Virus record (IMG/VR): IMGVR_UViG_3300014835_000052
Origin: a virus
DNA length: 64,000 nt
Direction: 5' to 3' (one strand)
Every line of letters starts with the position of its first letter. Position 1 is the first letter of the stretch. A program made the position numbers and the translations under genes. This document shows positions 46,503 through 64,000 of the stretch, in pieces. The notes beneath the pieces are model-generated. The model was not told the origin of the DNA and did not search any database. It saw only the letters and a program-made list of their open reading frames with translations.

Positions 46503-47114
46503 CTAATCTATTATTTCGTCGACAAATGGTGATTGTTCAAGAATCAATCGTATCTTATCTTGAGGGTATTTAACAAACCTATCTAGTTTTTTAATTATCA
46601 ACAAATCTTGACCCCATATCATTTTAAGAGTTGTTTCCCACTTTTCAAGGAACGGTATAAACTTGTGTAGAATATATAATGATTCAATACTAATTGCATC
46701 ACCCAAATACATCTTAAATATTTCAGGAATATCTTTGCTGTTATCCAACATATCAAAACAAGAAATATCTTTTTTTTCCATAACTAATAATACTTTGTCT
46801 ATATCATTCTTAAAAGTATTGGTTATACTATGTCTTCTGCGATTCCAAAGAATAAAGTTAGATTCAGAAGATGCTATATTAAATATAGGATCGTTCTTAT
46901 ATGCTCTATTAGACACAAGGAACTGGATTGATTCAGCATCAGTTTCAAACTTTCTAGCAATAGCATTATAGATGTTATAATCTCTTCTTGCTAAAAAGTT
47001 CTCAAGAGATACTCCATTAGTCTTGCCGTTATAGTCAAACAGATTATACTTTTCAGTTGTAAAATGCAATTTTACTGCTCTTTCATATTTAAAAAATGTA
47101 TATCCAGTAATCAT
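46503..47114 (-). CDS. gp59: helicase loader gp59
   Basis: KLHF...KYNLF.YNGK...F..RRD motif; gp33-gp59-gp32 synteny. Confidence 0.8.
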   Translation of the reverse strand: MITGYTFFKYERAVKLHFTTEKYNLFDYNGKTNGVSLENFLARRDYNIYNAIARKFETDAESIQFLVSNRAYKNDPIFNIASSESNFILWNRRRHSITNTFKNDIDKVLLVMEKKDISCFDMLDNSKDIPEIFKMYLGDAISIESLYILHKFIPFLEKWETTLKMIWGQDLLIIKKLDRFVKYPQDKIRLILEQSPFVDEIID

Positions 47115-47380
47115 ATTACATCAGAAGTTGTAAATCTGGGTAGCTTACCTTCTTCTTGTAATTCAATTTCTATTTTATCTTTTAAACATTGACTAATTTG
47201 TGGAACTACTTCTATAGGATCAATAAAATTATCCTTGCAGAATTCAAGAATGGCATCTAATCTAGTAATACGTTTTTGTACTGATAAATTTTCAATAAAG
47301 AATGAAAATTCTAATACATCATCTGCCTTATTGGAATTATTAGGTGTTATTAATTTGTTGATCATATTTGCAATATTCAT
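47111..47380 (-). CDS. gp33: late transcription co-activator gp33
   Basis: FSFFIE...LDAIL.FC..N.I.P...LK.KIE. Confidence 0.8.
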   Translation of the reverse strand: MNIANMINKLITPNNSNKADDVLEFSFFIENLSVQKRITRLDAILEFCKDNFIDPIEVVPQISQCLKDKIEIELQEEGKLPRFTTSDVI

Positions 47381-47393
47381 AAAATCTCCAATG

Positions 47394-47654
47394 TTAAGAC
47401 AATCTGTTGATATAGTAAGTACATGCCCTATAATTATCCATTACAGATATATATTCCTCATATTTATCATTATAAGGTTTTCTTATATCACTATAATAAG
47501 ATGATTTATTTAAAATAGAATTACTGTATGTTAAATTAAAATCTGTAAACCATTTATCTAAAATGTATTTAGATACTTCAATTGAAGATAATATCTTTAT
47601 CAATTTATGTTTTTCTTTTAGAGCATAAAGTATAGATAATTCCTTTATAGTCAT
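47394..47654 (-). CDS. hypothetical protein
   Basis: ORF track, downstream of early promoters. Confidence 0.5.
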   Translation of the reverse strand: MTIKELSILYALKEKHKLIKILSSIEVSKYILDKWFTDFNLTYSNSILNKSSYYSDIRKPYNDKYEEYISVMDNYRACTYYINRLS

Positions 47655-47772
47655 TTTTTAATCCCCTTTAGTGAAAAAACATATTATACACGAATTAGAA
47701 TATTAAACAAGCTTTATTGGAAAATGTTTTAAGAAGAGAAAGCAACTGATCTACTTAACCCACTACAGATAT

Positions 47773-47801
47773 ATTATAAGCTCATTTTGAACAAAAGTCA
47801 A
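47773..47801 (-). promoter_or_regulatory. sigma70-like promoter
   Basis: TTGACT-17-TATAAT on the minus strand. Confidence 0.8.
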
Positions 47802-48315
47802 CCCCAAAAACAAATAAATATTATTTAACATGGATGACAATGAAAACATTTTCAAAAGAGATTTATCCAACGAAGGCCAATAATCCAGAACATACAGATT
47901 TAATTGATGCTTATAATATCGGACATTCTGCTAATGATCAAGCTGCTTCTAAATCATGATGTACTGATTAACCAACACCATTACAATTCGGGAGTGAATC
48001 GTTCATTTATATCCCAAAGGGATTAGAACCTAAAAACTATTAATGCGTATATTGTATTTAAAAATGTTGTCACTAGGCTTAAAAGCAGCTAAAGAAATGA
48101 TAATAACATTAAAGGGATAAAAAATACAACCTATTGATACTTATGGATTAAACAGAGATAAAGGCATTTAAATTACATTTTATAAAAACTGACCCATACA
48201 TTTGTACTGATTATACAATTTAAAGTGATTTATGGCTTATAAGTTGTTGATAGTAAAGGGGTTAAAAAGTAGTTTTTTGGTGAGTTGGGGCTTTTTTTGA
48301 GGTAGAATTATAGGC

Positions 48316-48350
48316 AATAAAAACCCCCGTTTACCTAGATATTCGGGGGT
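48316..48350 (-). terminator. intrinsic terminator
   Basis: ACCCCCG-14 nt-CGGGGGT stem followed by T run. Confidence 0.7.
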
Positions 48351-48357
48351 AATTACT

Positions 48358-48852
48358 TTAGCTAGATTGTTTTTTTAATGATTGATAAAACCAATGGTGT
48401 CCCAAATGTATACCTTTCTTATGTCTTTTATTCAAATGACTATCAAATGAATCAAGAATTCCAATTGGGTTTCTAACATTACCATTTAAAATATCCGACG
48501 CTAGATGATAGAATTCATCTTTATCGTCTGATGGGACTTTTTTAGAGGTATATTGCCCCCTTATTACTTTGCAAACAGGTTTATTAAATATTTGTTTAGA
48601 TCTAGTTATAATAGTTTGACCTACAGCAATTTGTCCGAGTCTAGATTCCCCTCTAGATTCCGAATAAATTGTTTCTGCTATACATTTAATATCGTTGTTA
48701 GTATTAGGTATATATTTTTTGATATTATTACTCACTACAGCATGGTTATCTTTAGCAGTATTATTGTGATTGTTTTTCTTAACATGAGTTCCATTCTGAG
48801 CATACGATGCAGAATTGAAAGCCATACACAAGATCAATAAAAGTGATCGCAT
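48358..48852 (-). CDS. SleB-like cell wall hydrolase with signal peptide
   Basis: CIAETIYSESRGE...GQ.AV...VC.VI..QY; hydrophobic N-terminus. Confidence 0.75.
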   Translation of the reverse strand: MRSLLLILCMAFNSASYAQNGTHVKKNNHNNTAKDNHAVVSNNIKKYIPNTNNDIKCIAETIYSESRGESRLGQIAVGQTIITRSKQIFNKPVCKVIRGQYTSKKVPSDDKDEFYHLASDILNGNVRNPIGILDSFDSHLNKRHKKGIHLGHHWFYQSLKKQSS

Positions 48853-49086
48853 GTAAAATACTCCTTTATTTCAGTTACATTATATAAAAAAGTCATATAA
48901 CGCTTCCCTTATATCGGTATATATCCATTGCTAATTGGTTGATATATTTGGGACGGCACTTCAGTTGTCTTATAGGCATTCTCCGGTAATTAATAATTAT
49001 ACCACTTGATTCTATATAATCCATTTACCCATACTGCTTATCCTGAAGCATTCCTTATGGTAAAATATAAAACCAAGTAATATAGT

Positions 49087-49094
49087 TATTTATA
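49087..49094 (-). promoter_or_regulatory. T4-type late promoter
   Basis: TATAAATA on the minus strand, intergenic. Confidence 0.65.
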
Positions 49095-49101
49095 TAAAAA
49101 T

Positions 49102-49761
49102 TTAATATCCTTTCACTTTCCTAAATTCAGATCGTGCTTCAATAGCGGGTAACATCCAATCCTTAGTTTTTTCAACAAAAATTTGAGGATTTTCATCATC
49201 TACAGCAATTAAAATAACAATTTGCTCGGGCATAGTAGTTTTAGTCATCTCTGAATACATCATTGAATAGAAGGCTCCTTGTAAAAAATAGGAAGAAATC
49301 CACTCCTTCTTTTTTAACTTCCCAGATGTCTTAAAATCAATAACAGACAATACACCTTTATAGTTTGCTATGCAATCAGTTGTTCCCGCGATTTCAAGTT
49401 TGTGTGAAAATAACATTGATTCTAAACAAAATATATTATCAATGTCATCTAAAATGGGTTTAAATCCCGTCCACATTTCAGCATCATACATACCAAGCTT
49501 GACTTCTTCATTATTTAAATAGACTTCACATAATGTATGTATTCTAGTCCCCCGAGAAGATGCTCTATTGGAAATCCTATTAGCTTCTTCTTCTCCAACT
49601 TTAGCTCTCCAAGCTTTTATTGATTCAATAGAACCTAACGATGTTACAGTAGTTACAGATGGATACTTCTTCCCATTGGGGGTTACATATAACCTTTTAC
49701 CATCTTCATTGATTCTAGACATCGTTGGGAGGTCTAATTCCATATGATTAAACATTATCAT
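49102..49761 (-). CDS. PD-(D/E)XK exonuclease
   Basis: YPSVTTV, RGT.IH, AGTTDCI, IDFKTS, YFLQ...Y. Confidence 0.8.
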   Translation of the reverse strand: MIMFNHMELDLPTMSRINEDGKRLYVTPNGKKYPSVTTVTSLGSIESIKAWRAKVGEEEANRISNRASSRGTRIHTLCEVYLNNEEVKLGMYDAEMWTGFKPILDDIDNIFCLESMLFSHKLEIAGTTDCIANYKGVLSVIDFKTSGKLKKKEWISSYFLQGAFYSMMYSEMTKTTMPEQIVILIAVDDENPQIFVEKTKDWMLPAIEARSEFRKVKGY

Positions 49762-49952
49762 TGTACCTCAATAATTCATCTTCAGATAAAGGCAATCTTA
49801 ATCCTGATTCTAAAACCTCTAATTGGATGTCTGTTAAATTAAGATCCGTTAAAAGCTCATATAATTCACCTTTATCAATTTTATCAAAGATTTCAATAAA
49901 ATATTCAAACAATTCTTGCTCATTCATATAAAGTTCCTTAAATTGATGATAG

Positions 49953-50336
49953 TTATTTACTTAGAATTGGATAATAAGATTCAATAGCATGTTTAAAAAA
50001 TGTAATCATTGTATCGTCGGTCTTCATAACCATAGCATACCGATCCCCATATGCTAAAATGCCGGTATATTCATAGCCCGACATAAGAGTAATAGTCACT
50101 GGAATTTTATTATCAATAAACTCCTGGATATGTTGATCATGGCCATTCATCTGAAGCGCATATGGGATTTTAGGTTGCTTTGGTGGTTGAGGAGACTTAA
50201 TCTTTTTTTCTTGCTTAGGTCTAGGTGATCCTTGCTTAGGTCTGGATCCATTTTCAGATTTAAGGATATTTCCTGTTACCTGGGTGGTTTGTCTGGGAGT
50301 TTTTAATGACAGAATGGGTCTATTTGTAGTTTCCAT
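49953..50336 (-). CDS. hfq: Hfq-like Sm-fold RNA-binding protein with basic N-terminal extension
   Basis: IPVTITLMSG....G.....DRY...K...FFKHAI...P aligns by eye with the E. coli Hfq Sm1/Sm2 motifs. Confidence 0.7.
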   Translation of the reverse strand: METTNRPILSLKTPRQTTQVTGNILKSENGSRPKQGSPRPKQEKKIKSPQPPKQPKIPYALQMNGHDQHIQEFIDNKIPVTITLMSGYEYTGILAYGDRYAMVMKTDDTMITFFKHAIESYYPILSK

Positions 50337-50349
50337 GATATAATTCCTA

Positions 50350-50721
50350 TTAATTTTCAGGTAAATCGGATAAAAATAATGCCAATCTTTTTTTATACTC
50401 TTTTTCTAACTTGCGTTCTTTAATAATTTCAAGCATAGCTTCCCGATGAACTATTGCTGTATCTGTAACAAGAAATAGTTTAAAAATATCAAAAACACCA
50501 TGTTCATCAGTAAGGCTATGGATAATATGTTGATTCTGTAGATTTAACATATATGTCATAACATGATCCATTTGCTCTTTTAGCCAAGTATGTGAATCCA
50601 TTAATTCTTCCAACACCTCATCTAAAGATCTAACACCATCAATATTTAGATATCCATCTAGCATCATTTCATCTTTGTATAGTAGTATTTTTTCATATGC
50701 TGATTTATTGCGATCTTTCAT
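50350..50721 (-). CDS. hypothetical protein
   Basis: ORF track. Confidence 0.5.
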   Translation of the reverse strand: MKDRNKSAYEKILLYKDEMMLDGYLNIDGVRSLDEVLEELMDSHTWLKEQMDHVMTYMLNLQNQHIIHSLTDEHGVFDIFKLFLVTDTAIVHREAMLEIIKERKLEKEYKKRLALFLSDLPEN

Positions 50722-51001
50722 TAAATACCCCAGACCATTTTTTAAGTTTCCAAATTTTAGCGGCCTTTGCTAAATTTACTTCACGTTCACTTACAACATC
50801 ACAATTCATTAATATTTCAATCATCGCCAAAAGATCCCCCAATTCTTCTTCTAAGTGTGCTTTATTGGATAGATTATTCCATTTAGTATCCATGCCAAAT
50901 CTAAATACCTTTGAGATCGCTTGGCTAACTTCTGCACATTCTTCTTGTGTAATTAACAATGCTTCATTTATATTCATAACATTCATAATATATATTTTCA
51001 C
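50705..51001 (-). CDS. MazG-like nucleotide pyrophosphohydrolase
   Basis: EECAEV.QAISK..RFG...LEEELGDL. Confidence 0.75.
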   Translation of the reverse strand: MKIYIMNVMNINEALLITQEECAEVSQAISKVFRFGMDTKWNNLSNKAHLEEELGDLLAMIEILMNCDVVSEREVNLAKAAKIWKLKKWSGVFNERSQ

Positions 51002-51053
51002 TTAATTGTTGATGAAGTGTATATTTTACATTATTTAAAGCAATTGTCAAGAT

Positions 51054-51320
51054 CTAAATTGCAGTGATTGCTAAATTGGCTGTGTAAATGGCAGCATCAA
51101 TATACACTCTTAATTTCTCCTTATCCTGTAATTCTTTGGCACTGTTTGTAATTAAAGCATCTAATTGAATATCACTAATCAATTCATTAAATTCTGATAT
51201 ATCAATTTTATGAGTATTATATAATTCAGTTATTCTAATTGTCTCAGATATTGCATTAGTCACTTCAATAGATGTGGGTTTTAATCCAGACAAGGTTGTC
51301 AATATGTCTTGTAATATCAT
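51054..51320 (-). CDS. hypothetical helical protein
   Basis: ORF track; overlaps the stop codon of the lipoprotein gene. Confidence 0.55.
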   Translation of the reverse strand: MILQDILTTLSGLKPTSIEVTNAISETIRITELYNTHKIDISEFNELISDIQLDALITNSAKELQDKEKLRVYIDAAIYTANLAITAI

Positions 51321-51724
51321 TTAGATTTAGCTCCTAATACTGTTTGAATGTTTTTTGCAGAATGCTCAATCAATGTAATTTTTTCCTTGCAATATGTTGC
51401 TGATACTGGAATGTCTGAATTATATCTTAATGATAGACCTTTAATCTCAGACAATAAGTTTGTAGACATTTGGACGGCATCTGTATTGTTGGGATATATT
51501 GCTGTATAGTTCTTAAATTCAGTAGCTTTTAGTAAAAGATCATCACTGAATTTTTTAATGTTATTTGGATTATTGCATTGACTAATACTAATTTCAGCTA
51601 ACGCGCTTATACTCGTGATGATTTGATACTCCATTGGGTCATATTTTGGTATTAAATATGCATCTAATACAGCACAGCTAGAAATAGATATTGCTGCTAT
51701 TGCTATTATCATTTTTTTTTTCAT
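51317..51724 (-). CDS. putative lipoprotein
   Basis: MKKKMIIAIAAISISS-C lipobox. Confidence 0.65.
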   Translation of the reverse strand: MKKKMIIAIAAISISSCAVLDAYLIPKYDPMEYQIITSISALAEISISQCNNPNNIKKFSDDLLLKATEFKNYTAIYPNNTDAVQMSTNLLSEIKGLSLRYNSDIPVSATYCKEKITLIEHSAKNIQTVLGAKSK

Positions 51725-51733
51725 TTATATACC

Positions 51734-51979
51734 TTAAAGATTTGTTGTTTTATCTAAACAAGATCCCGGAGTTCTCTCATGGATGCGATTTAATACTTCT
51801 TTGAAATTTCCACCTTTATTAAGACCACCTTCCATCCTAATTGCGCTACAGACTACACCACCCGATATTACTAATTCTAGTAGAGGGTTATTTAATTTAA
51901 ATTCCGTCAATTCAGACATTTTCATTACTTTTTCAGTAATGTCATTTGTGATAATATTTTTAAAATCATATGTTGGCAA
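51734..51979 (-). CDS. FmdB-like small protein conserved in T4-like phages
   Basis: MPTYDFKN..T...E..M.MSE. Confidence 0.6.
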   Translation of the reverse strand: MPTYDFKNIITNDITEKVMKMSELTEFKLNNPLLELVISGGVVCSAIRMEGGLNKGGNFKEVLNRIHERTPGSCLDKTTNL

Positions 51980-52468
51980 ATTATACTCCCAGATAAGAAT
52001 TAGATTTAGGGTTTAGAAATTTACCTTTAGTCACATCATAATATAATACTATACCAGATTTCCTAAATGGCCCAATCAAATTGAGGTTTTCTTTTTGCAT
52101 ATATCCATCTAAGCTAATACAATTATTGTTTGTTTCTGCTTTCATCGGTTGATAATGGTAGTTCATATAAATCCTCACAATCAGTAGGTGTTTTCTTTCC
52201 AAAGATAATATCCCAGTTGTCATCATATTTCTTTTTATCTGTAGGTCTCTGTGCAGACCCCTTTCCATTCTGTGCAGTATTTTGTTTCATTATCCCTCTT
52301 GTGTGATTATTGCTACATTAATATCATCAATTTTATTGTCACGATCTGTATAAAATTTATACAGTTGTACACATCTTGCAAATTGGATTGGGTGATGGAT
52401 GTGACTGGGTAATGTCCCAAACATTTCTAACAACTTTGTATAATTATTCTTAATATCTTCTTCCGACA

Positions 52469-52720
52469 TTATGAGTGCGCATATAATAAGATGGATGTGC
52501 CCTCTTCTTCTAAATATTTGATTCTTGGGATATATTTAGCATACTCTGAAATTCTTCCCATGTATAGCTCTTCTTCAGTCCAATTTAAAAGTTTGGCTTT
52601 GATTGGGTGGTGGATGTGGCTTTCTGGAGTGGCAGTTGAACTTGTTTTATATACAATCAATGTCTCACCATCAATCGGGCAATCGGTCCCAGTGTGTTTC
52701 ATAAATAAATATTTTCTCAT
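52469..52720 (-). CDS. hypothetical protein
   Basis: ORF track. Confidence 0.45.
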   Translation of the reverse strand: MRKYLFMKHTGTDCPIDGETLIVYKTSSTATPESHIHHPIKAKLLNWTEEELYMGRISEYAKYIPRIKYLEEEGTSILLYAHS

Positions 52721-52750
52721 TTTAGTTCCTATGTTTATTAAATAAAGTGT

Positions 52751-52758
52751 TATAAATA
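52751..52758 (+). promoter_or_regulatory. T4-type late promoter
   Basis: TATAAATA upstream of 52832. Confidence 0.65.
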
Positions 52759-52831
52759 TGTATGTGTGAATATATAGATGATTGCTGTTGGAATGTATAT
52801 TATAAAAATATTTTTATGATGGAATGAATAT

Positions 52832-53065
52832 ATGTCAAAAAGCAATATGGAAACACCACATGATTATTCATATAATATGGAGGTTCATACTACGCATTTT
52901 GACAATGAAGTGCATACAAAACACCACCAATGGATTTGTGAAAAAATTAAATGTGAGCGTGATAAACGTAGGATGTATCGTGAAATTACTAAAATCGTCA
53001 TGCAATGGTCAATTCCTGCTATATCTGGAGCTGTTTGGTATTGGCTAAAAAGCCACTGGAATTGA
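52832..53065 (+). CDS. small late protein with C-terminal membrane anchor
   Basis: Late promoter; hydrophobic WSIPAISGAVWYWL C-terminus. Confidence 0.55.
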   Translation: MSKSNMETPHDYSYNMEVHTTHFDNEVHTKHHQWICEKIKCERDKRRMYREITKIVMQWSIPAISGAVWYWLKSHWN

Positions 53066-53071
53066 GTATTA

Positions 53072-53105
53072 AAAGGTGAGATGGTCTTAAGACCATCTCA
53101 CCTTT
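53072..53105. terminator. perfect 34-bp palindrome, bidirectional terminator
   Basis: AAAGGTGAGATGGTCTT|AAGACCATCTCACCTTT followed by T-rich tail. Confidence 0.8.
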
Positions 53106-53172
53106 CTTTTTTACATATCATACTTATCATCTGAGGTAATATGACATGTTGCATTTGCTTGTAGCATAGCCA

Positions 53173-53490
53173 TTAGAATTCATCCCAAGTAATGTTATTA
53201 GCTTCTAAGAAATCTGTTAATCGAGGATAGAGTGATGCCCCTGTATTGGCTCTTACTAGAGCATCGTTGTCTATTACGTCTACATTGAAGAACTCCGTAT
53301 AGTCTGGGATGTTACCCAGTAGTTGTTCAGCAGTGAGCCAATCAAGATAGTGCTTGTTTTCTTCACAAGGATCTTCTACGTAGTCCAGTTCAGCACTTTT
53401 AATCTCATCAGTAGTACCTACTGCTTCTTTACGCATTGCCATACCAGCTACTACAGCAGCAGATAGATTAAATTTAAGATCTAAGCCCAT
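53173..53490 (-). CDS. hypothetical early protein
   Basis: ORF with GGAG RBS. Confidence 0.6.
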   Translation of the reverse strand: MGLDLKFNLSAAVVAGMAMRKEAVGTTDEIKSAELDYVEDPCEENKHYLDWLTAEQLLGNIPDYTEFFNVDVIDNDALVRANTGASLYPRLTDFLEANNITWDEF

Positions 53491-53535
53491 GTTATTACTC
53501 CAATTAGTTGTAGCACCATCCTTGGTACTGGTTGA

Positions 53536-54042
53536 TTACTCTAATATTTCTGATAGTCTCTGAAGAGCATCAGCATTATGTAAGTTGAAGACTGGTATGC
53601 TGTTGGCTATTGCCAGTCGTATTGCTTGACCTGTGCCGCCTGTACTATAGGAAGTACTGGTTTCAGCACCATCCGGAGTCCAGCATAGAACAAAATCTAC
53701 TGGAGTTTTTAGGTCATCTCCTAGTATCTGGTGCATGTTACGAGCCATAAGTTTCTTAGCACCTTGGCTTAACTTGCCCCAGGCAGGATGGTATTTGCTG
53801 GCTAGTTCTAATGCTTCATAACTACACGCAACAACACCATCTATACTGTCATTGAAGCCTAACCACGGTATGTAAACGACTTTGTTGGTACAACCTTTAG
53901 CGAAGGCTTGATCTGCACCTTCAGCTCCACCAGAGTTTAATCTGTATCCATTATTTTCTAGCCTTGCTGCAACACGTTGCATAAGAGTCATTATGTTCTC
54001 TGGAGTCTTACGACTACCAATTCCAGCATAAGATTTAGACAT
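53536..54042 (-). CDS. SLOG-family (DprA/YspA-like) nucleotide-binding protein
   Basis: YAGIGSR, SGGAEGAD, GGTGQAIRLA; start ATG 54042 has an AAGGA RBS. Confidence 0.75.
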   Translation of the reverse strand: MSKSYAGIGSRKTPENIMTLMQRVAARLENNGYRLNSGGAEGADQAFAKGCTNKVVYIPWLGFNDSIDGVVACSYEALELASKYHPAWGKLSQGAKKLMARNMHQILGDDLKTPVDFVLCWTPDGAETSTSYSTGGTGQAIRLAIANSIPVFNLHNADALQRLSEILE

Positions 54043-54065
54043 GGTAAATTCCTTAATGATAGTGA

Positions 54066-54326
54066 CTAAGCAGATAAGAAGGTTCGTAGTACATAAGCTA
54101 ATATTTGGCACATAGTACCTTGGAGTGTTATATTATCGTGGGTTACTGTCCAAGTACCGTCGATGTTTGATATAGCACAATAGCCTAGATTACCGTTAGG
54201 TGAAGTGCTGAATAGGTTGCCTAGTTCTAAAGTATCTATAAAGCGACTGTTGCAGTATAATCTGCTGTCTTCTGAGTTACTAAGGACTGAATCTTTTGCA
54301 GCTAATTTTGAATCGAGGAAGGTCAT
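54066..54326 (-). CDS. hypothetical protein
   Basis: ORF with GGAG RBS. Confidence 0.5.
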   Translation of the reverse strand: MTFLDSKLAAKDSVLSNSEDSRLYCNSRFIDTLELGNLFSTSPNGNLGYCAISNIDGTWTVTHDNITLQGTMCQILAYVLRTFLSA

Positions 54327-54343
54327 GTTATTACTCCAGTAAG

Positions 54344-54649
54344 TTAAGGAAATAAACCTAAATAACCATCTAAAAATCTTTTTATAGTTTCACCATGACA
54401 CCTCTTTGGAGCACAGAAACATTGTAATAATAAATCTCCATTTATTGCTATTTGATATAATCGTCGAAGTTCAACCATTACTACCTGATCTCTTGATCTT
54501 ATCTTATCAGAGAACCATATATTATATTCTTCACAAACTCTATTACGCTCTTTATTAGATGTATCTAACATTTTATATGGATTACCTAAAGGAGAACCAC
54601 GCCCAATATATTGAGAATTTTCTTTTAAACCATTGATTATTTCAATCAT
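54344..54649 (-). CDS. DUF4326-like protein
   Basis: YIGRGS..GNPY...L.C.CAP..CHG. Confidence 0.75.
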   Translation of the reverse strand: MIEIINGLKENSQYIGRGSPLGNPYKMLDTSNKERNRVCEEYNIWFSDKIRSRDQVVMVELRRLYQIAINGDLLLQCFCAPKRCHGETIKRFLDGYLGLFP

Positions 54650-54818
54650 TCATTTTGATTCCTTTTTTGCTGGGGTGTATAGTCCAGAAATGATGATCGG
54701 TGTCAATAAAGACGTTTCAAATAATGGTGTTTTATTTCTTTGTTGATTTCTCATAGCATTTGCTCTCATAATTCTTCTAGTCATTTTTAAAATCTCTTAA
54801 AGTTTCAAGGTATGGCTA

Positions 54819-54847
54819 ATTATCCTATAAATCGGAGGAACCGTCAA
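54819..54847 (-). promoter_or_regulatory. early promoter (GATAAT family)
   Basis: TTGACG-17-GATAAT followed by TAGCCATACCTT. Confidence 0.75.
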
Positions 54848-54931
54848 GATTTATTTTTACTAAATATAAGAATTGATTATGATAAGAGGCGACACCTCTA
54901 TTGAAAATATCAATTTGACTGGAGAAAGCAT

Positions 54932-55255
54932 ATGGATAAGGGCGTTGTAAAATCGACACCTATTAAAAGGACTAAAAAAGTTGCCCCTAGAACTGGATTT
55001 AAGTATTTCATAGCGACATCATGGAGGCCACTGGTAGCATTCACTTATATCATCATATGTTTATATGATTTTATAATAGGACCAACATTATTTAATGTAT
55101 TACAATATATGAATCCAGGACAAAGTATATCTGCTTATACATCTATCACTTTGCAGGGATCTGGGTTATTTCATTTGAGTTTTGGTGCAATTATTGGAGT
55201 GTCTGCTCATGGGAGGACTAAAGAGAAATTAAATGTTGTAGACATAGAAAAATGA
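54932..55255 (+). CDS. holin-like membrane protein
   Basis: WRP...two hydrophobic segments...GRT.EK; convergent with the endolysin gene. Confidence 0.6.
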   Translation: MDKGVVKSTPIKRTKKVAPRTGFKYFIATSWRPLVAFTYIIICLYDFIIGPTLFNVLQYMNPGQSISAYTSITLQGSGLFHLSFGAIIGVSAHGRTKEKLNVVDIEK

Positions 55256-55263
55256 TATTGCAT

Positions 55264-55300
55264 ATATAAGACCTTTAGTTGCTATTTAAAGGTCTTATAT
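55264..55300. terminator. 14-bp stem hairpin between holin and endolysin genes
   Basis: ATATAAGACCTTTA-9 nt-TAAAGGTCTTATAT. Confidence 0.7.
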
Positions 55301-55314
55301 TGTAATTGTTAGGG

Positions 55315-55929
55315 TTATTTTAGGGAAATAGTTTTCAATGCAAGATTGTAATATTTTCGTCTTTCATCTAGACCTAACGTTCCACCATTAATTTTTTTGG
55401 TGAGGGTGATAAAATCTTTAGAATCAGCATATTGATTTAGTTTATTAATATCCCAAAAATGGCACGCTGATGTTATTGCCCCTTCTAGGGTTTCGCAATA
55501 ATTGACCACTTCTTGTAAAGTCATATCAATACTTTCTGCTAATGATTGATAATTACTCTTTCCAGTGGTTTGAATAAATCCTCTACCCCGATATGTGTAA
55601 CCATCGCCAGAATCCTCATCTCCATTGCCTAATCTATCACAATATACTTTATTAGCAATCATTTCTGGATTTCTGTTATATGGGGCAGCAACAGATTCAG
55701 ACTTAAATCTTGACGGCCATGTACAACACAACCCTTTAGTAGAATAGTTTAAATTTTCTTTCATTACAGTAAATTGATTTGACTCGTGCGAACATTGTGA
55801 TAACCAAGCTGCAACCCTATTTTTAGTGTTAATATTATATTTTGGTAATACTTTATTGAGAGTATCAACCATTTCTTTAGGTTGTTTATTATTGGGACAG
55901 ATTATTTTAAATTCTTCTAGAGTAATCAT
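55315..55929 (-). CDS. GH19 endolysin
   Basis: AWLSQCSHES, ENLNYS, YRGRGFIQTTG..NY, TKKINGG..GL..R. Confidence 0.9.
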   Translation of the reverse strand: MITLEEFKIICPNNKQPKEMVDTLNKVLPKYNINTKNRVAAWLSQCSHESNQFTVMKENLNYSTKGLCCTWPSRFKSESVAAPYNRNPEMIANKVYCDRLGNGDEDSGDGYTYRGRGFIQTTGKSNYQSLAESIDMTLQEVVNYCETLEGAITSACHFWDINKLNQYADSKDFITLTKKINGGTLGLDERRKYYNLALKTISLK

Positions 55930-56095
55930 GATTATCCTATTTAATAGATTGAGTATTCTTATGTTTTAATGACTTTTTTAATGATTTCAACCATAATTCT
56001 TTTTCTAATTCTTTATCGCCATCAATACATGCTTTATTTAATTTTTTGACTAATTTTTTGACTTTCATTTTCTTTTTCCTAATCGTTTGAGTATA

Positions 56096-56103
56096 TATTT
56101 ATA
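56096..56103 (-). promoter_or_regulatory. T4-type late promoter
   Basis: TATAAATA on the minus strand upstream of the endolysin unit. Confidence 0.65.
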
Positions 56104-56227
56104 GATATAAATCCTTTCTGTCCACAATTTAATAAAACACAATATAGCAAAATAAATAGGTAATACAATAATAATTACAAATATTTTTAATAATATGACA
56201 AATAAATCAATTAACAATTCCATAAGA

Positions 56228-56440
56228 TCACCAATGGTGTATTACACCTAAAATGACTGTAAAACAAGTTAATAAATGAGCGAATACCCACCCTGTTCTA
56301 ATTACTAAACTCAATCTGGCTTCAATCAATGTCAGAATGGGTGTTGATGGTTCATCCATATCGTTTTCACCTACAAGATGGCCTAATGATCTTGCCCATA
56401 TTCTCTCTAAACTACAGATTAATTCTTTATCTTTTAACAA
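56228..56440 (-). CDS. small membrane protein
   Basis: Hydrophobic C-terminus. Confidence 0.5.
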   Translation of the reverse strand: MLKDKELICSLERIWARSLGHLVGENDMDEPSTPILTLIEARLSLVIRTGWVFAHLLTCFTVILGVIHHW

Positions 56441-56612
56441 TATATTTCCTTTATTTAATAGTTGAATGCTTTTAATTCACTGATGATGGATTCTTTATCA
56501 CCCATACGTTCTTTACGAGTTGCAATTCTTCTATCAATTGCAGATAAAGATTTTTTATTGAAAGGACTTTCTTGCTGAATGTTTTTTTGATTTCTATGGT
56601 GGTTAGTTCTGC

Positions 56613-57383
56613 TCATAATAATTTATCCTGGCTAATATATACGGGGATTTCTATTTTTCCAATATTAATAATATACTTCTCTATAAAATGATTTACAAAA
56701 TAATTTAATTTTCCCTTTTTAATTCCAGTAATAAGACCTCTAATTCTATCCGTTAAAGTTTGCATTGTTGTTAAATCGGCAATATTGCCATCATGGTCAA
56801 AATAACACAAATCTCCGTGGTGCGTATAACTAAATCTTGGAAATGATGTCACAATATCAATATTATTTACCCACCTGAAATGTTTTATTTTCAATGAATC
56901 TGTGTATTCTTTATTTCCAACTTTAGGGCTGCCAAATGTGTATAATATAGGATTTGCACCCATTAAATTACAACGATTAGCAGCTATAGTAGACATTGCA
57001 GCACCCAATGAATGACCAGTAAACCAAATATCTCTAGAACTATATTCAAACAGATAATTTTGGATGGGTTTCCATACATTATCCACACTATTCAAAAACC
57101 CCTTATGTACTTTACCTTTACAAAAATTGGTGGCTGGAACTAATTGTCTCTTTAAATCTGTAATAATATCTTCTAATTCATTAGGTTGTGTTCCTCTACA
57201 TACAATTATTACATCTGTATCATCATATAAAAAGTATGCTTGACTCCCTTTATTATCAATAAAAAATGAATTATATCCAAATGAACCAAAATCTTGATTG
57301 TCTGTATAAGAAAGATTGCTAAGGTTTGCCATTAATAATGTAATTTCTTTTTGTGATTTTAATTTAAGCATCGTAGTCCTCAT
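56613..57383 (-). CDS. class 3 lipase-like alpha/beta hydrolase
   Basis: RGT, VHKGF, GHSLG nucleophile elbow, TFGSPKVG, D.V, terminal H. Confidence 0.85.
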   Translation of the reverse strand: MRTTMLKLKSQKEITLLMANLSNLSYTDNQDFGSFGYNSFFIDNKGSQAYFLYDDTDVIIVCRGTQPNELEDIITDLKRQLVPATNFCKGKVHKGFLNSVDNVWKPIQNYLFEYSSRDIWFTGHSLGAAMSTIAANRCNLMGANPILYTFGSPKVGNKEYTDSLKIKHFRWVNNIDIVTSFPRFSYTHHGDLCYFDHDGNIADLTTMQTLTDRIRGLITGIKKGKLNYFVNHFIEKYIINIGKIEIPVYISQDKLL

Positions 57384-57396
57384 AATAATTTTTTAA

Positions 57397-58020
57397 TTAA
57401 TCCCAAAGATTTCTAAAATATACGCCCATGAGTCTAAATCCATTATCAATTCGCTCTGAATGTTTTCTATAACCATCCCAATCGTATACTCTAGTATCAT
57501 TTGGACCTTTAATCATCTCAGACATTCCATTTTCTAATTTCTTCCATTGAATATCACTAACGCCTGTTCTATATTGCTCCTCCCAATCATCATGATTAAT
57601 ATTTTCAAACGCCCAAATAATTTCATCTAAAATGTAATCCCACCGGGCAAAATGGAAATCATCAGTATCCCATTCATTTTCCACCCTTGGAGCATTCATA
57701 CTTTTTAGATAATCCGGGACATCTTCATCACGTGTGTAAGGTGCACCGTGTTTAGTATCTTTCAATTGCTTTAACATTGGTAAAATGATTAATCCTAATG
57801 AATTGTCCATAGACCAAGTATCCCACTTATCGATTTTCACACTCTCAATACGAGGGTGCAATGTATCAAGAATTTTCTTATTCCATTCACATAACGTTTC
57901 TAGCCATTTGGGTGGCTCAGTTTTATACGCATCATAATCCTTCATCCAAAAGAAAAATTTCTCTAAAATGGTATAAGGCGAAACCCAATGATTCCGGTAG
58001 CCTGATAAATATATTTTCAT
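57397..58020 (-). CDS. conserved hypothetical phage protein
   Basis: Long ORF with DTWSMD..L..II.PML..LK..KHG.P pattern. Confidence 0.65.
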   Translation of the reverse strand: MKIYLSGYRNHWVSPYTILEKFFFWMKDYDAYKTEPPKWLETLCEWNKKILDTLHPRIESVKIDKWDTWSMDNSLGLIILPMLKQLKDTKHGAPYTRDEDVPDYLKSMNAPRVENEWDTDDFHFARWDYILDEIIWAFENINHDDWEEQYRTGVSDIQWKKLENGMSEMIKGPNDTRVYDWDGYRKHSERIDNGFRLMGVYFRNLWD

Positions 58021-58022
58021 AA

Positions 58023-59150
58023 TTAATCCTCTATCCCAAATTCACAACCACACGCTGTTGATAACATTTCATATAAACTGCTATCAATATTAATAGATAA
58101 TGATTTGAAAATCAGATCATCTTCATATTCGTCTTCGTATCCTTCTTTACAATCTTTACATATCCAACTATAAAGTTCTGCTTTTAACTCTTCTTCCATT
58201 TGGAATTCCCTTTCCCAACCAGGGGATGACATTTTAATTAATTTCATAACAAAATCTCTTCTAATTTAAATTATTTAATATGTGATAATCTTTCTTTAGT
58301 GGCTTTGATGGTATCATAAGCACCATGGTCCCAATCAAGATTACCTTCATAAATCATGTACCTACAATTATCAGTTTTAAATCCAAAATAAAGTTCGTCT
58401 ACATCTAACTCAATTTGAAATGAGGAATCTAAATATACTCCATTTTCCATGATAATATAATTTCCAGTATCATAGAAATCTTTTAACTTCTTAGCAAATT
58501 TATAAACACTATTCCAGCGTTTTTCATAAATATTCACAGTAATAACCCTTTAGGAGATAAAAATCAATCTTTATTTTTTAAAAGACTTCTAGATAACCAC
58601 CCAAATACGAATGGGATTATTATAAGAATGGATACTAATATAATTTCTTCTGCATTCATAAATTCTTTTTATATTCTTGATATGCAGTTTCAAATTCCTT
58701 AAAGAATTTTATAGCAGATTTTTCTTTGTCATTGTCTGTTTCAAATTCAACTAATAATTCTAGTGGGAATACAAAAGTCACTTCTACTTCTGGTATATAA
58801 GTGACTTCGTTAATTGTTAATTTATGATTTTCTATTCGCATAATTCCTCAAGTTCCAGCGTATCCCCAAGAAGGCATTTCAAAGGTGTCTAAATTGTTAA
58901 GATTGACTTCATTCTTCCAAAAAGTTTTATTTTTGATTTGCTTTTCAGATTCAGAAGCACAGGATTGATCCCAATAAAATGATGCCAAAATTGGATCAGT
59001 TTCAATTAGGTCGTTTTTAATAAAACTACAAGGTGACATCATCCAAGATTTAACGTTAGAATTGATGTATTTTTCTTGAAGGCTAATGAATAATGAATCA
59101 ACTTCTTGGTTGGTCATTGGTAGGTTTTTTTTATTATAAGTATATGACAT
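58023..59150 (-). other. run of small hypothetical early genes (58023-58247, 58271-58537, 58656-58841, 58848-59150)
   Basis: ORF track; co-oriented downstream of a tandem promoter. Confidence 0.55.
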
Positions 59151-59171
59151 TTCAATTTCTCTCTAAGAGTT

Positions 59172-59287
59172 AAGGTATGGTTTATTATCTTACATTTTCA
59201 ACAGGGAGTCAAGTCTTTATTCATCAACCCCTGTCTCAAGGTATGGTTTATTATCTTACATTTTCAACAGGGAGTCAAGTCTTTATT
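59172..59287 (-). promoter_or_regulatory. tandemly duplicated early promoter (50-bp exact direct repeat)
   Basis: 59172-59221 = 59238-59287; each copy TTGACT-17-GATAAT. Confidence 0.9.
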
Positions 59288-59733
59288 TAAATATATTCAT
59301 CCATGAATGTGACACAGGAGGACATTTTTTGTTCAAGGGATAATGTTTGTAATTCTTCATTATCATTATCACATAGATCAATGATCTCTGCCACGCTTAG
59401 TGATCTATGCGAAATGATAGATTCGCCAATATCCACCTGGGAAAATTCTGATGCTTCTCCATAAACAACAACATCAAGTGCCATTGCGTGATTGCCTTTT
59501 GGAACTTCAACAACATATTTAACTAACTGTTGTTGGATGCATTCTACAAGTACAAATTCAGTTTCAATATGTTCATCTTTTTCTACTTTAGATAAAATGA
59601 ACGAGCCATCTTCTCTGGTAGTCCATTCTAACTCATCTTCGATGGTGAATCCTGCAGATATTAAAAACTCCTCTGGTATTTCAATAAAAAGGTCTTTATT
59701 TGTATCTTGTTGTACAGTAGATTTAATTTTCAT
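59287..59733 (-). CDS. AbrB/MraZ-like N-terminal domain protein
   Basis: LFIEIPEE......G....DELEW.....G.F.L.K. Confidence 0.45.
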   Translation of the reverse strand: MKIKSTVQQDTNKDLFIEIPEEFLISAGFTIEDELEWTTREDGSFILSKVEKDEHIETEFVLVECIQQQLVKYVVEVPKGNHAMALDVVVYGEASEFSQVDIGESIISHRSLSVAEIIDLCDNDNEELQTLSLEQKMSSCVTFMDEYI

Positions 59734-59919
59734 AATATTTCCTATAGGTGATTATCAGAATTGCAAGAACTTGGTAAATTTGAAAAGGTTGAGCATGGAT
59801 CTTTTTTCATAATTTCTATATTAAAAATAGTAATTAATATAAAAGCGAGGATAATAAATAATATGATTTTCGTAATATCCTTTGTGTACTATATACTTAT
59901 ATGATTAATAGGAGCACTG

Positions 59920-60246
59920 ATGCAAATTCCATATAAATTAGTTCCACCAGAATCTAGGGTTATATATAACCATTTAAAGCAATCTGCCAAAAAAAGAGGT
60001 ATTGCATTTACATTAACAATATCTGATATTTATAATCTTGATTATCCTATATCATGTCCAATTTTGGGAATACCTTTACATTGGTATTATGGTAAAGCCC
60101 AGGATGGGTCTTATTCTTTTGATAGAATAGATTCCACACAAGGATATAATATTGATAATATACAAATACTATCCTTTAAAGCGAATAGGTCAAAAAATAA
60201 TTTATCTGATATAGAATTAAAAAAGTTTAGTCAATTTTATCAATAA
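59920..60246 (+). CDS. HNH-like endonuclease (possible homing endonuclease)
   Basis: CPILGIPL...SFDRIDS..GY...NI..LS..AN..K; opposite strand to neighbours. Confidence 0.7.
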   Translation: MQIPYKLVPPESRVIYNHLKQSAKKRGIAFTLTISDIYNLDYPISCPILGIPLHWYYGKAQDGSYSFDRIDSTQGYNIDNIQILSFKANRSKNNLSDIELKKFSQFYQ

Positions 60247-61152
60247 TCTTTACAATAGCAACAGATTCTATTTCAATCTCTGCTATCTGTAATACTATTG
60301 CGTCATTCTTATCGATTAAAATATTAGCAAATTTTGTGAATGGTACAAGGTGTTCCGAGATAATATTATATTGGGTTTCTTCATTAAAAGTTGCCCAATA
60401 TATTTTGTCTTTATAATTAATTTTATAACCAATCATTTAATATTTCACAATCATCGCAATCTATGTATTTGGTTGAAGTATTGACAGATGATATGTTGAT
60501 TATTTTATAGGTATTACGAGTTTGGTAAATATCTGGCTCAGTTATAAGCTCAACTATATATTCTTCGTTGATATGTCCAGCATACCAATAAGTATCTTGT
60601 TTTGATTTAATGATTTTAACTTTCATGATAACCTCAAATATAAATGTTTATCTATACACTGGAGAATGTATGAGTATGGGTGTTTATCTATGTTCCCTAT
60701 AAACTGGATCATAATACATATCTCTCCTATCATATAATCTAGGTTGTTGGCGTTCTCTATAATCTTCTACATAATACCTATCTTGCGAATTTGATATGGC
60801 ATTACCAACAATTATGCCGCCAACAATCACTCTAACTAAATCGTCTGCGTGGAATACATCGATAGAAACTAATAATATTGCTGCAATGATTATTTTTTCA
60901 TAAATCACCTTTATCTTGAAGAAATTTCTTTTCTTTTAACGTTATAAGGTTCCACATTTTTCTAGGATTAGAACAAAATATACAATTTGAATTACCACAA
61001 TCCATGACATTCCTTTTATGGAATTTATGTGGAGTTGATACAGGAATATTGTTTTCTTTGGCAATTCTTATCTGTTTTTCTAGATGATTATTTTTATATC
61101 TAATACGTTTTTCATGTAAAGATTCTTCTATTACACCGTCTACATTTACCAT
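60227..61152 (-). other. run of small hypothetical early genes
   Basis: ORF track 60227-60436, 60423-60626, 60684-60908, 60898-61152. Confidence 0.5.
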
Positions 61153-61364
61153 AATATAACCCTAATCAATTTACTTATAGAGAACTAACATAAGAGACAA
61201 GAATTCCTTCGATTGTCTCACAAGTAGTTTGATAATATTCTTTCAAATAGGATTTCAATTCTTTATTTTCCTCACGATCAAGAGTCAAGCGAGCATTTAT
61301 ATAAAGTTCTTTTAATTGTTGTTTCATATCGTTTTAAAGTTCTGTGTGTTTAAAGTATGTGTAT

Positions 61365-61471
61365 ATTATACATCAATTATTGATGGAGTCAATCCTTTTT
61401 TTTTTCTTTCTTCCTAACCTTCCTGTCTCAAGGTAAGGGGTAATCATCGTTCATCTAGAGGCAGAAGTCAA
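61365..61471 (-). promoter_or_regulatory. tandem early promoters homologous to 555-658
   Basis: TTGACT-17-GATGAT (spacer 16/17 identical to that at 561-577) then TTGACT-16-TATAAT. Confidence 0.8.
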
Positions 61472-61768
61472 GTCCTGAAGGTGCTTTACCCGACATTTCA
61501 GATTCTGATTTTTTGATAGGATTGTCTAAAAATTTGACATAATCATGCATGTCTATACCAGATTTTTTTACTACTGAATCTTGTTGTGTCGCTATATGGT
61601 ATGCTTCTTGGATCATTGAGGTATAAAGATAAGGCGTATGGTTATTATAGTAAATGTATTGAATGTTCTACATTATTCTATGTCAATTTAATCAGTGATT
61701 GAATAGAACAATCTCTGATTGAACCAATAGAAGATATTATGTTTCAGACGATCTTCTGATTTCCAAAA

Positions 61769-62632
61769 TTAATCTTCTGGATGAAATAACCAATAAGGGT
61801 TATTAATAATATTTTCCTTATCGGGTAAAGAATTAGTATCTATATATTGTAAATTGAAGGTGGATACAGAATCTTCTATAGTATTATATCCTCTAGCATT
61901 ATTCGTTATTAGTGTATTGCCAATATAATATTGGTGCCTTTCATGAGTATGACCAGAAAACCACAACCTTATTTGTGGTCTATTTAGAATGAATTCATCC
62001 AACGAACTAACAAAAGCACCATTTGATATAATACAGTCTTTAAATTTGGGAGAAATGGATCTGTGGCTAACGCCATGATGACCAACGACAATAAATTTAG
62101 TATTTGGTTTATCATCTACCTTAGATTTAATAAACTCCAGCATTTTATTGTGTTCTATTACATAATCTTTGGGCATAAATTTAGGAGGATTATCTATATT
62201 GGATGGTGTACTATTAGTGGCATATTTAAAATCACCTAACATGTATCTAATATCTGATATAGTTTTAGGATCACTCCTATTCATATCAGACCATAATGTC
62301 CCACCTATGAAAGTAATATCCTCTAAAGTAAATACTTCATTATCTAAAATGTGTAAATTTTTGATATAGGATAAATGTTTTTTTAATAATGGAATCGTAT
62401 TATGATAATCTCCATTATACATTTCATGATTTCCTGAGATATAAATAACATCTTTGAATTCTTTAGAGCAGTTATTGAAAAAATTATGGATGCGTTTTGC
62501 TTTTCCAGTAAATTCTAGATCTGTCGCCACACAAATATCTCCAGCAAGTATCAATATATCTGCAGAATCCGTATTTGTTAAATTTATATTTCCCCAATCT
62601 ATATGTAAATCCGATCCAATTGCTATTTTCAT
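61769..62632 (-). CDS. calcineurin-like metallophosphoesterase
   Basis: SDLH, AGD, GNHE, GHH, GHTH motifs. Confidence 0.85.
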   Translation of the reverse strand: MKIAIGSDLHIDWGNINLTNTDSADILILAGDICVATDLEFTGKAKRIHNFFNNCSKEFKDVIYISGNHEMYNGDYHNTIPLLKKHLSYIKNLHILDNEVFTLEDITFIGGTLWSDMNRSDPKTISDIRYMLGDFKYATNSTPSNIDNPPKFMPKDYVIEHNKMLEFIKSKVDDKPNTKFIVVGHHGVSHRSISPKFKDCIISNGAFVSSLDEFILNRPQIRLWFSGHTHERHQYYIGNTLITNNARGYNTIEDSVSTFNLQYIDTNSLPDKENIINNPYWLFHPED

Positions 62633-62811
62633 AATGTAAATAATTTAAAAATTTCAAGTTTATTATTCTTCCTATTTAATTTATTCAAGAATGTCTTGTT
62701 TGTCTTATTAGAATTATTTTTTCCTCTAGGAATAACATTACAGCAGTAACATTTAATACCACCATGGCCAGTAATAAGATTCTTTTTATATAGACCTTTC
62801 ATGATATATCC

Positions 62812-63138
62812 TTAAGTATTTTCAGTAATGCAGGTGCCATCTGCATCATATACACACGCATAGATAGCAGAACTATCTGTCAATTTTTGTTGGAATATGT
62901 TGTAGAATACGTCTCTTTCATATTCATTATCAAAAAAGAATAATCCACCATGAATAAGATCTCCCATTATTGCTGGGTATTGGTTATGTGGGTATAAAAT
63001 TTCAATTTCATCCATAACAAATTTCCAAATGTGTTCATCATCTTTATCAAAATTCAATGAATTACTAATATAGACTGCAGGTGTTTCCATTTTAGATACT
63101 GCTAAAGAGTTTGTTTCTGCCCAATCAAAATATTTCAT
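62812..63138 (-). CDS. hypothetical protein
   Basis: ORF track. Confidence 0.55.
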   Translation of the reverse strand: MKYFDWAETNSLAVSKMETPAVYISNSLNFDKDDEHIWKFVMDEIEILYPHNQYPAIMGDLIHGGLFFFDNEYERDVFYNIFQQKLTDSSAIYACVYDADGTCITENT

Positions 63139-63365
63139 AATATAATCTCTATAGGTTTAAAAATCAATCGCAAATTGTAACTAACACTTCATTTAATTGG
63201 CGTTTATTTAAATCATAAATGTCAAATGTAGTAAGAGATTTAGCAAAATCTAAATTTATATTTTCTAAAGGATCAATGTTATCTGTGTCAATTCTATGTG
63301 CTATAATTTTCATTATATTTTCAATCAATTCATTCATAATATATTTCTCTAATTAAAGTTTACTT

Positions 63366-63394
63366 ATTATCTTACATTTTCAACAGGGAGTCAA
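63366..63394 (-). promoter_or_regulatory. early promoter (GATAAT family)
   Basis: TTGACTCCCTGTTGAAAATGTAAGATAAT, identical to the 59184-59212 and 59250-59278 copies. Confidence 0.85.
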
Positions 63395-63397
63395 GAT

Positions 63398-64000
63398 TTA
63401 TCTAAACAGTGACAACACACCTTGCGAAGCAGTATTCATTTGGCTAATCAAATAAAAGTCAACGGTTGCCTGATTATTCAATTGCGTCAGCTGAATTTGT
63501 AAAGCCGCCTGATCCGGTTTTTGGATAGAATCTATAGTGTTTTGTAAATTCACCCCCAGATTGTCAGCCATTGCTGATTGAGAAGTCAAACCCACATTAC
63601 TAGCAGAAAGCGTTGATTGACCTGCAGACACTGTTGCAAGATCGGAGGTTAACTGATCCAACGCTCTTTGGGCGCCGGCGGCAGTGGTTATGTCAATAGG
63701 AGCTGCCGCAGCAGAAAGATCGGCAGCAACCGCAGTAGATGCAATAGCTGCAGCAGTCGCTGGTGTTGCACCAGAATAGGCCGTGATAGCGGCAGCGGCT
63801 GCATCAAACTCAGCTTCACCAGCAGCTTGTGCGACACCACCACCAGCAATACTAATAGCATCGGCCCTAGCAAGAGCAACTGCCGTAGAGGCAATTAACG
63901 CTGCTTCAGGGGCTGTACCTCCATCTGTGACACCCGCAGTAACAGCCGTCGCCGCCGCAGTGGCATCGGTATCAGCAGTAGCAGAAAGAGCAGCATTAGC
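63398..64000 (-). CDS. flagellin-like protein (C-terminal 200 aa, runs off window)
   Basis: Frame open to the window edge; IDITTAAGAQRALDQL motif and ...SQMNTASQGVLSLFR terminus of the flagellin D1/D0 region. Confidence 0.75.
   Translation of the reverse strand, partial: ANAALSATADTDATAAATAVTAGVTDGGTAPEAALIASTAVALARADAISIAGGGVAQAAGEAEFDAAAAAITAYSGATPATAAAIASTAVAADLSAAAAPIDITTAAGAQRALDQLTSDLATVSAGQSTLSASNVGLTSQSAMADNLGVNLQNTIDSIQKPDQAALQIQLTQLNNQATVDFYLISQMNTASQGVLSLFR

Follow-up and report, generated by a model that had tools for sequence, protein, structure and literature searches.

Among described systems, the closest to the locus reported here is FliC_P of the FR-phi prophage of Enterobacter sp. 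BIDMC93, a phage-encoded flagellin that replaces the host flagellin in the filament (PMC13418256, doi 10.1038/s41564-026-02355-x). The replacement depends on the RNA-guided repressor TldR and a guide RNA silencing the host gene; FliC_P and the host flagellin are highly divergent in sequence, and the phage is temperate and lambda-like (PMC13418256). A screen of more than 1,100 phages turned up none that was flagellotropic, and its authors considered exclusion an unlikely main driver of that system (PMC13418256). As far as we found in the literature, phage-borne flagellin has been published only for such temperate TldR prophages of Enterobacteriaceae. Two further systems serve here for comparison: the promoter-early stem-loop (PeSL) cassettes that mediate gene shuffling in T4-type phages (PMC2839356, PMC4122927), and the pmoC phages, large phages of freshwater methanotrophs with host-derived auxiliary genes, whose description does not mention flagella (PMC7674155). 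Here we describe a flagellin gene that a T4-like phage captured recently from a methanotroph.

The window analysed is a 64,000-nt stretch of IMG/VR virus record IMGVR_UViG_3300014835_000052, from a T4-like myovirus of about 30% GC with genes for baseplate wedge, hub-lysozyme, tube cap and tail tube. Positions 63398-64000 on the minus strand hold the last 200 codons and the TAA (63398-63400) of a 375-residue flagellin gene, whose frame is open upstream to the window edge at 64000. The preliminary description had noticed an open frame here with an Ala-rich region and a flagellin-like C-terminus, and reading and translation bore this out: an Ala-rich stretch is followed by ...PIDITTAAGAQRALDQL... 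and then by the C-terminal end ...SQMNTASQGVLSLFR, that is, the Ala-rich variable centre and the C-terminal D1/D0 helices. Its contrast in base composition was reproduced exactly on recounting, with 35/60 G+C at 63661-63720 versus 15/60 at 63181-63240; the part of the ORF in the window has 50% GC, and the preceding 2 kb have 28.9%. The N-terminal half was read from L001, an independent assembly of the same phage found through a neighbouring gene. This 17.4-kb ENA contig is 99.85% identical to window positions 56011-64000 and extends 8.6 kb beyond them. It contains the complete gene (L001:8108-9235, 375 residues, protein P0001) behind a GGAG ribosome site, and differs from the window at one of the 603 nucleotides of the flagellin part.

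The gene product is a flagellin, as the preliminary description had proposed; the call is supported by a Flagellin_N match, by a profile match to flagellin filaments from end to end, and by a D0/D1 fold with TM scores of 0.81-0.88. Against Pfam, the full-length protein matched Flagellin_N (PF00669) over residues 11-134 with 55.3 bits, above the cut-off of 26.6. The suggested Flagellin_C (PF00700) search came out divided: essentially the whole model was aligned (positions 2-86 of 86), and the score of 18.4-20.1 bits stayed under the curated cut-off of 23 (20.1 bits and E 7.9e-4 for the 200-residue fragment). This sub-threshold score is a sensitivity limit of the Pfam model for the short-flagellin clade described below. 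The best NCBIfam matches of the full-length protein were likewise flagellins, all weak, and no PHROGs family matched the 200-residue fragment. We then used a family profile of 266 positions, built from 34 members. It matched solved flagellin filaments from end to end, and every top match was a flagellin: positions 28-264 aligned to the Roseburia flagellin 9hpz (E 1e-25) and positions 13-266 of 266 to Caulobacter FljK/L/M/N (FljK = 6xky; E about 1e-21). The AlphaFold model (mean pLDDT 80.7, both termini above 90) shows the D0/D1 helical hairpin and a helical Ala-rich centre of low confidence (residues about 160-280). In Foldseek, the top 30 or so hits were flagellin filaments, and against flagellins of about 270-300 residues the TM score on the target was mostly 0.74-0.88. 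The protein thus has in common with bacterial flagellins (FliC/Hag) the D0/D1 hairpin around a variable centre, and it ends in ...LSLFR, where Salmonella FliC ends in ...LSLLR; the short bacterial flagellins to compare it with, Caulobacter FljK (6xky) and the Roseburia protein (9hpz), have about 270 residues.

Other identities were considered. The hook-filament junction protein FlgL came into question since JGI names relatives of the phage protein 'FlgL-like'; it was ruled out because flagellins make up the best NCBIfam matches and every top PDB match, by profile as well as by fold, with no FlgL among the top profile matches, and further because the host metagenome-assembled genome (MAG) has a separate flgK-flgL pair. 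A structural role in the virion was ruled out by the location in the early region and by termini identical to the host gene's. On the same strand, the roughly 1.4 kb upstream of the flagellin contain no TATAAATA late promoter, the nearest being at L001:6639 on the opposite strand. A dominant-negative variant was also rejected, since all family-invariant residues are kept (20 of 20 columns) and both substitutions in D0/D1 are present in relatives with host context.

A sharp GC step at the ORF borders would also be expected if a phage contig and a host contig had been joined in assembly, and the preliminary description had raised this concern for a join at about 63400. However, the same 3' junction was found in four assemblies: the window, L001 from ENA, and contigs L002 and L004 from two JGI samples (3300047277 and 3300021422). 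The backbone of L002 is 98.7% identical, and its 127 nt of flagellin carry two phage-type SNPs; L001 spans both flagellin junctions. The flanks have no repeat in common with host DNA that could cause a false join, and the phage copy differs from every host copy found. Given the recurrence of the junction, a chimera is very unlikely. An IMG/VR scan with the neighbouring metallophosphoesterase gave no related phage. L001 also supplied the N-terminus and the flanking phage genes that were to be looked for beyond the window. Going upstream from the flagellin, one meets a 52-residue ORF, then a pair of early-type promoters (L001:7757 and 7824), and beyond these a phrog_858 regulator, a pair of GerE-type regulators and a dCMP deaminase, all at phage GC. 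These genes form a phage early region, so the flagellin does not continue into a host flagellar operon.

The donor can be named with some precision. The phage gene (L001:8108-9235) aligns over 1128 nt with 94.9% identity to positions 10001-11128 of L008, a contig of a Methylococcaceae MAG, and the homology is bounded exactly by ATG and TAA, with unrelated flanks; the part in the window is 96.7% identical to L008:10526-11128. L008 is bacterial chromosome of 45-50% GC, with a DEAD helicase, cysG and argG upstream of the flagellin and fliR, fliP and fliM downstream. The homologue in Methylobacter psychrophilus (L009) follows flgB-flgJ and is the sole Flagellin_N match in that draft genome. In L008 and L009 alike, a conserved 129-aa ORF without Pfam match follows the flagellin. 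Consistently, GC3 of the phage flagellin is 0.343, higher than in any of 33 phage ORFs (median 0.17, maximum 0.31), and the host copy in L008 has 0.362 (host ORFs 0.35 to 0.59). Phylogenetic analysis of 47 family members and outgroups placed the phage copy and L008 as sisters (SH-aLRT 99), and the clade around this pair includes M. psychrophilus. The shared DNA is restricted to this gene: window positions 44001-63397 and L001:1-8107 had no further DNA in common with five Methylococcales genomes, and when the whole window and L001:1-8200 were compared in translation with six host loci, of which four are flagellar, the flagellin was the only match. Taken together, the ORF-limited identity, the host-like GC3 and the nested position identify the gene, at the level of sequence, as a recent capture from host to phage with a Methylococcaceae (Methylobacter-like) methanotroph as donor. 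The preliminary description had proposed a recent host capture and, from the divergent C-terminus, an unverified link to Methylococcales; the first is supported by these data, and the second by the nearest relatives, whose genes stand beside flagellar genes, as well as by the phylogeny it had recommended. The sequence data thereby assign an uncultured T4-like freshwater phage firmly to its host. The donor-type MAG has, besides, a canonical locus in which an 868-residue fliC is accompanied by flaG, fliD and fliS; the captured type is a second, short flagellin there and may thus be a minor or specialised one.

Relatives of the captured gene form a distinct group. A protein search returned 73 relatives with E values from 1e-37 to 1e-102, then a gap, with ordinary flagellins at about 1e-6. 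A scan of species genomes found the family in Methylococcaceae (including Methylobacter psychrophilus and Crenothrix), Polynucleobacter, Jezberella and Nitrosomonadales. By sequence, then, the phage gene falls in a divergent clade of short flagellins from freshwater Methylococcales and Burkholderiales, which is separate from ordinary bacterial flagellins, mostly sub-threshold for Flagellin_C and labelled 'FlgL-like' at JGI. A poorly annotated clade of freshwater methanotrophs and Polynucleobacter is thus brought out. Its flagellins in bacterial genomes (L008-L037) have about 260-490 aa and all end in FR. Jezberella montanilacus has at least five clade copies, several at contig ends, and the relatives P0007, P0012, P0021 and P0074 sit on large contigs (158-280 kb), some of which may be further phages. 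A metagenome scan with P0001 found two host-type loci only.

Comparison of the phage and L008 copies showed 58 differing nucleotides; of the codons concerned, 41 are synonymous and 11 non-synonymous. The latter replace 11 of the 375 residues, nine in the exposed variable centre and two in D0/D1. Overall dN/dS is 0.079, with 0.01-0.04 in D0/D1 against 0.32 in the centre. The copies diverge as a mosaic, by 12% over nt 1-240, not at all over 241-434 and by 4.2% beyond (P about 1e-5 for each extreme), a pattern that indicates recombination among alleles, which may have taken place within host populations or between phage and host. With changes polarised by three outgroups, the phage branch has 10 (9 synonymous) and the host branch 9 (8 synonymous). 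The low dN/dS could be a legacy of host lineages from the time before capture; part of the 'phage branch' may likewise predate it, so purifying selection inside the phage is at most a possibility. So is long retention in this phage, since the ORF has no drift towards phage composition. The 58 SNPs between phage and host are diagnostic for the alleles and make direct testing in lake metatranscriptomes possible.

The capture appears to have included a host promoter. In 4 of 4 clade host genes, TAAAGTTT (GGCTAAAGTTT)-N11/12-..CGTTA. is found at -158 to -166; a conserved leader of about 135 nt and a AAAAGGAATAC ribosome site come after it. The enterobacterial sigma-28 consensus is TAAAGTTT-N11-GCCGATAA, and this likeness, together with the conservation among the four host genes, marks the element as a predicted promoter resembling the sigma-28 type. 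Folding of the host leader gave 0 compensatory pairs and no covariation support, and what we claim for it is conservation of sequence, not of structure. The phage has TAAAGTTA-N11-TACGTTAA at L001:8042-8068, -66 from the flagellin (in full GCTAAAGTTA-TTACAATTTAT-TACGTTAA). The motif occurs once in L001, where 0.01 would be expected, and is absent from the 64-kb window with one mismatch allowed; its spacer word TTACAAT is common to the phage and L008 only. The -35 box overlaps the stop codon of the 52-residue phage ORF. The phage leader is 39 nt long and without notable structure, about 100 nt of the conserved host leader being gone. A host-type promoter before a short leader indicates that the captured DNA ran from promoter to stop and later lost about 100 nt of leader. 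The promoter remnant differs from L008 by seven substitutions, all of which leave A or T in the phage (5 GC to AT, 2 A/T swaps). The ORF shows no such drift: in the terminal D0/D1 regions, over which changes were polarised, the phage branch has 4 of the GC-to-AT kind and 4 of the AT-to-GC kind. A host-to-phage capture is thus seen near the event, and both junctions can be read: upstream the host promoter remains and the leader has been deleted, and downstream the stop abuts a phage cassette.

The promoter of that cassette, a predicted early sigma-70-type promoter at 63366-63394 on the minus strand (TTGACT, N17, GATAAT; 10/12 in a consensus scan), starts 3 nt (ATC) past the flagellin stop and would drive the next small gene. 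The same 29-mer recurs as a tandem pair on the minus strand at 59250-59278 and 59184-59212; these are its three identical matches in the window, and there were none in 100 shuffles. The promoter is part of a longer repeated cassette, diverged copies of which have flanking blocks in common. The tandem copies lie 66 nt apart (window 59184-59278), and L001, 99.85% identical, has a single copy there (L001:13421), a cassette indel between the two phages. A simple consensus scan of the coding strand over L001:7000-10100 found no terminator-like site on either side of the flagellin. The preliminary description was therefore accurate on the 3-nt spacing between stop and -35 box, on the identity with the copies at 59184 and 59250 and on the lack of a terminator between; its notion of a flagellin gene joined directly to an early promoter holds for the 3' junction, but the joining was not a simple one, as a host-type sigma-28 promoter is kept upstream. 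The first gene downstream of the flagellin is a 57-residue phage ORF (63164-63337, minus strand) in a 29% GC background, with no Pfam or PHROG match.

Several other features of this phage were recorded. The two regulators of GerE/LuxR type lie at L001:2354-3701, about 5-6 kb past the window end, in the part of the early region that precedes the flagellin; one of them has a receiver domain and is thus a complete response regulator, and they may reprogramme host transcription. An ORF of 111 residues at L001:305-616, about 8 kb past the window end, has 78% DNA identity to window 1989-2300 and may be a paralogue of the small gene there. The highest GC3 among phage genes, 0.31 each against the median of 0.17, belongs to the minus-strand ORFs at 53536-54042 (43% GC overall) and 57397-58020 (a match to phrog_11543, of unknown function), which may be other fairly recent acquisitions. 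At 59920-60246, an HNH/endonuclease VII-like gene (phrog_3322) on the plus strand, opposite to the minus-strand early genes around it, is a probable homing endonuclease.

We suggest that the phage most likely feeds export-competent subunits into the filament of its host. The N- and C-terminal D0/D1 helices are almost unchanged, with two substitutions relative to the nearest host copy, so export and polymerisation are to be expected. The flagellin would be transcribed early, by read-through from the phage promoters, and additionally by host RNA polymerase with sigma-28; its product would pass through the flagellar type III export apparatus of the host and join the filament of the infected cell by polymerisation. 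Filament supply could in this way be kept up, or shifted, during the takeover of host transcription, and the methanotroph could stay motile in the methane-oxygen gradient that powers phage production. Filaments are stable, so that a lytic phage may gain little from extra subunits. As a whole, recent capture of a host flagellin followed by its transcription, export and contribution to the filament in the infected cell is the explanation we favour, with confidence only modestly above even.

The same transfer might have had no consequence. A neutral passenger, brought by illegitimate recombination into a hyperplastic early region and due to be lost again, would look very recent and show an ORF without compositional amelioration, as observed. 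The gene is known only from phage variants that differ by 0-1.3% (98.7-100% identity), and it lies in a region of small ORFans between repeated promoter cassettes, the kind of site at which T4-type phages gain and lose genes (PMC4122927). A tblastn search with the fragment and the full protein against 50,697 GenBank phage records found no homologue, megablast of window 60000-64000 against GenBank phages gave no match, and IMG/VR contained one phage homologue only. That homologue, however, speaks for a role. It is on L007 (UViG_3300042400_000887), a different T4-like phage with gp45 clamp and gp44 loader genes and an endolysin 58% identical to that of the window. The L007 flagellin (265 residues, 42-46% identity to P0001, Flagellin_N 68.3 bits) belongs to another clade of the family and so represents an independent capture, and the gene has been kept intact. 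The locus reported here is also neatly trimmed: it still has the promoter, its leader is shorter, its GGAG ribosome site is a good one, and 3 nt separate its stop from the promoter that follows. Its AT-enriched promoter remnant hints at a longer residence than the identity of the ORF suggests. A passenger without selected role is in our judgement a possibility to be taken seriously, though not a probable one. Beside the L007 flagellin (L007:5850-16038) we observed several genes with cell-surface or signalling functions: they encode a CHASE2-adenylate/guanylate cyclase of 690 aa, proteins of FecR-like and curlin-repeat type, and CsgG and CsgF for curli secretion.

The discrepancy in apparent age between promoter remnant and ORF would be accounted for by a more specific form of the supply hypothesis. 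The flagellin could be a 'motility auxiliary gene' of a virulent T4-like phage of lake methanotrophs, controlled by a host sigma-28 checkpoint plus phage early promoters, with an ORF continually rewritten to the current host allele by recombination with the resident host gene during infection, so that infected cells keep swimming within the methane-oxygen gradient. Such rewriting would explain an ORF of 95% identity with mosaic divergence (12%, 0% and 4%) beside an older, AT-enriched promoter and a truncated leader. We put this forward tentatively, as a conjecture with a minority share of our confidence.

Incorporation into the filament could also serve to alter the cell surface. A changed filament face, or a shifted balance between the 868-residue and 375-residue flagellins, might exclude flagellotropic competitors or prevent progeny from sticking. 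The concentration of 9 of 11 amino-acid differences in the exposed central domain, with its dN/dS of 0.32, the two very different flagellin types in the host MAG, and the remodelling of Enterobacter filaments by the prophage FliC_P would all suit such a function. On the other hand, the phage allele is nearly identical to the host's own, and exclusion was judged an unlikely main driver in the FliC_P system (PMC13418256). We consider surface remodelling unlikely. Still less probable, and in our estimate quite doubtful, is that excess flagellin acts in the cytoplasm as a decoy that titrates FliS or a flagellin-sensing regulator and thereby reprogrammes or shuts down the flagellar regulon, with no filament made. 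With about 100 nt of leader lost, the phage gene may escape translational control by the host and be over-expressed from the early promoters. However, the 72 kb examined contain no partner gene, no residue change marks a non-polymerising variant, and the kept sigma-28-type promoter would couple expression to a working export apparatus, which fits supply of subunits better than blockade.

In the favoured reading, as a source of filament subunits, the gene resembles the TldR-FliC_P system in being a full-length flagellin carried by a phage, with a conserved D0/D1 core; FliC_P is exported by the host apparatus, as the product described here would be. The FliC_P phage is temperate; for the T4-like myovirus studied here, the part of the genome covered gave no sign of lysogeny, though an integrase may lie outside it. 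The flagellin of this myovirus is not highly divergent from the host gene but about 95% identical to it in nucleotides, with 11 differences in 375 amino acids. No TnpB-type Pfam family was found on any L001 gene, over 8.1 kb upstream and 7.4 kb downstream of the flagellin, and the only large unassigned ORF nearby (384 residues) had no Pfam or PHROG match. Control appears to lie instead with the kept sigma-28-type promoter and the phage early promoters; since a T4-like phage takes over host transcription, it may not need a TldR-like repressor. In bacterial relatives, the flagellin gene is placed beside flagellar genes behind a sigma-28-like promoter, and in the phage it stands in an early region. 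There, as in PeSL shuffling, near-identical early-promoter modules separate small variable genes of a hyperplastic region, and the captured flagellin abuts one promoter cassette directly. The locus differs from PeSL in that a simple consensus scan detected no stem-loop or terminator part beside the promoter copies; the promoter cassette may have had a role in the capture. Like the pmoC phages, this phage has a recently host-derived gene for a host function relevant to energy supply, but the gene encodes a structural protein of motility and not a metabolic enzyme. New relative to all of these are the kept sigma-28-type promoter with the loss of about 100 nt of leader, the membership in the short-flagellin clade and the second, independent capture in L007. 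A phage flagellin without a repressor, in an environmental phage of virulent type, suggests that phages interfere with host filaments more widely, and by a greater variety of mechanisms, than the TldR prophages indicate.
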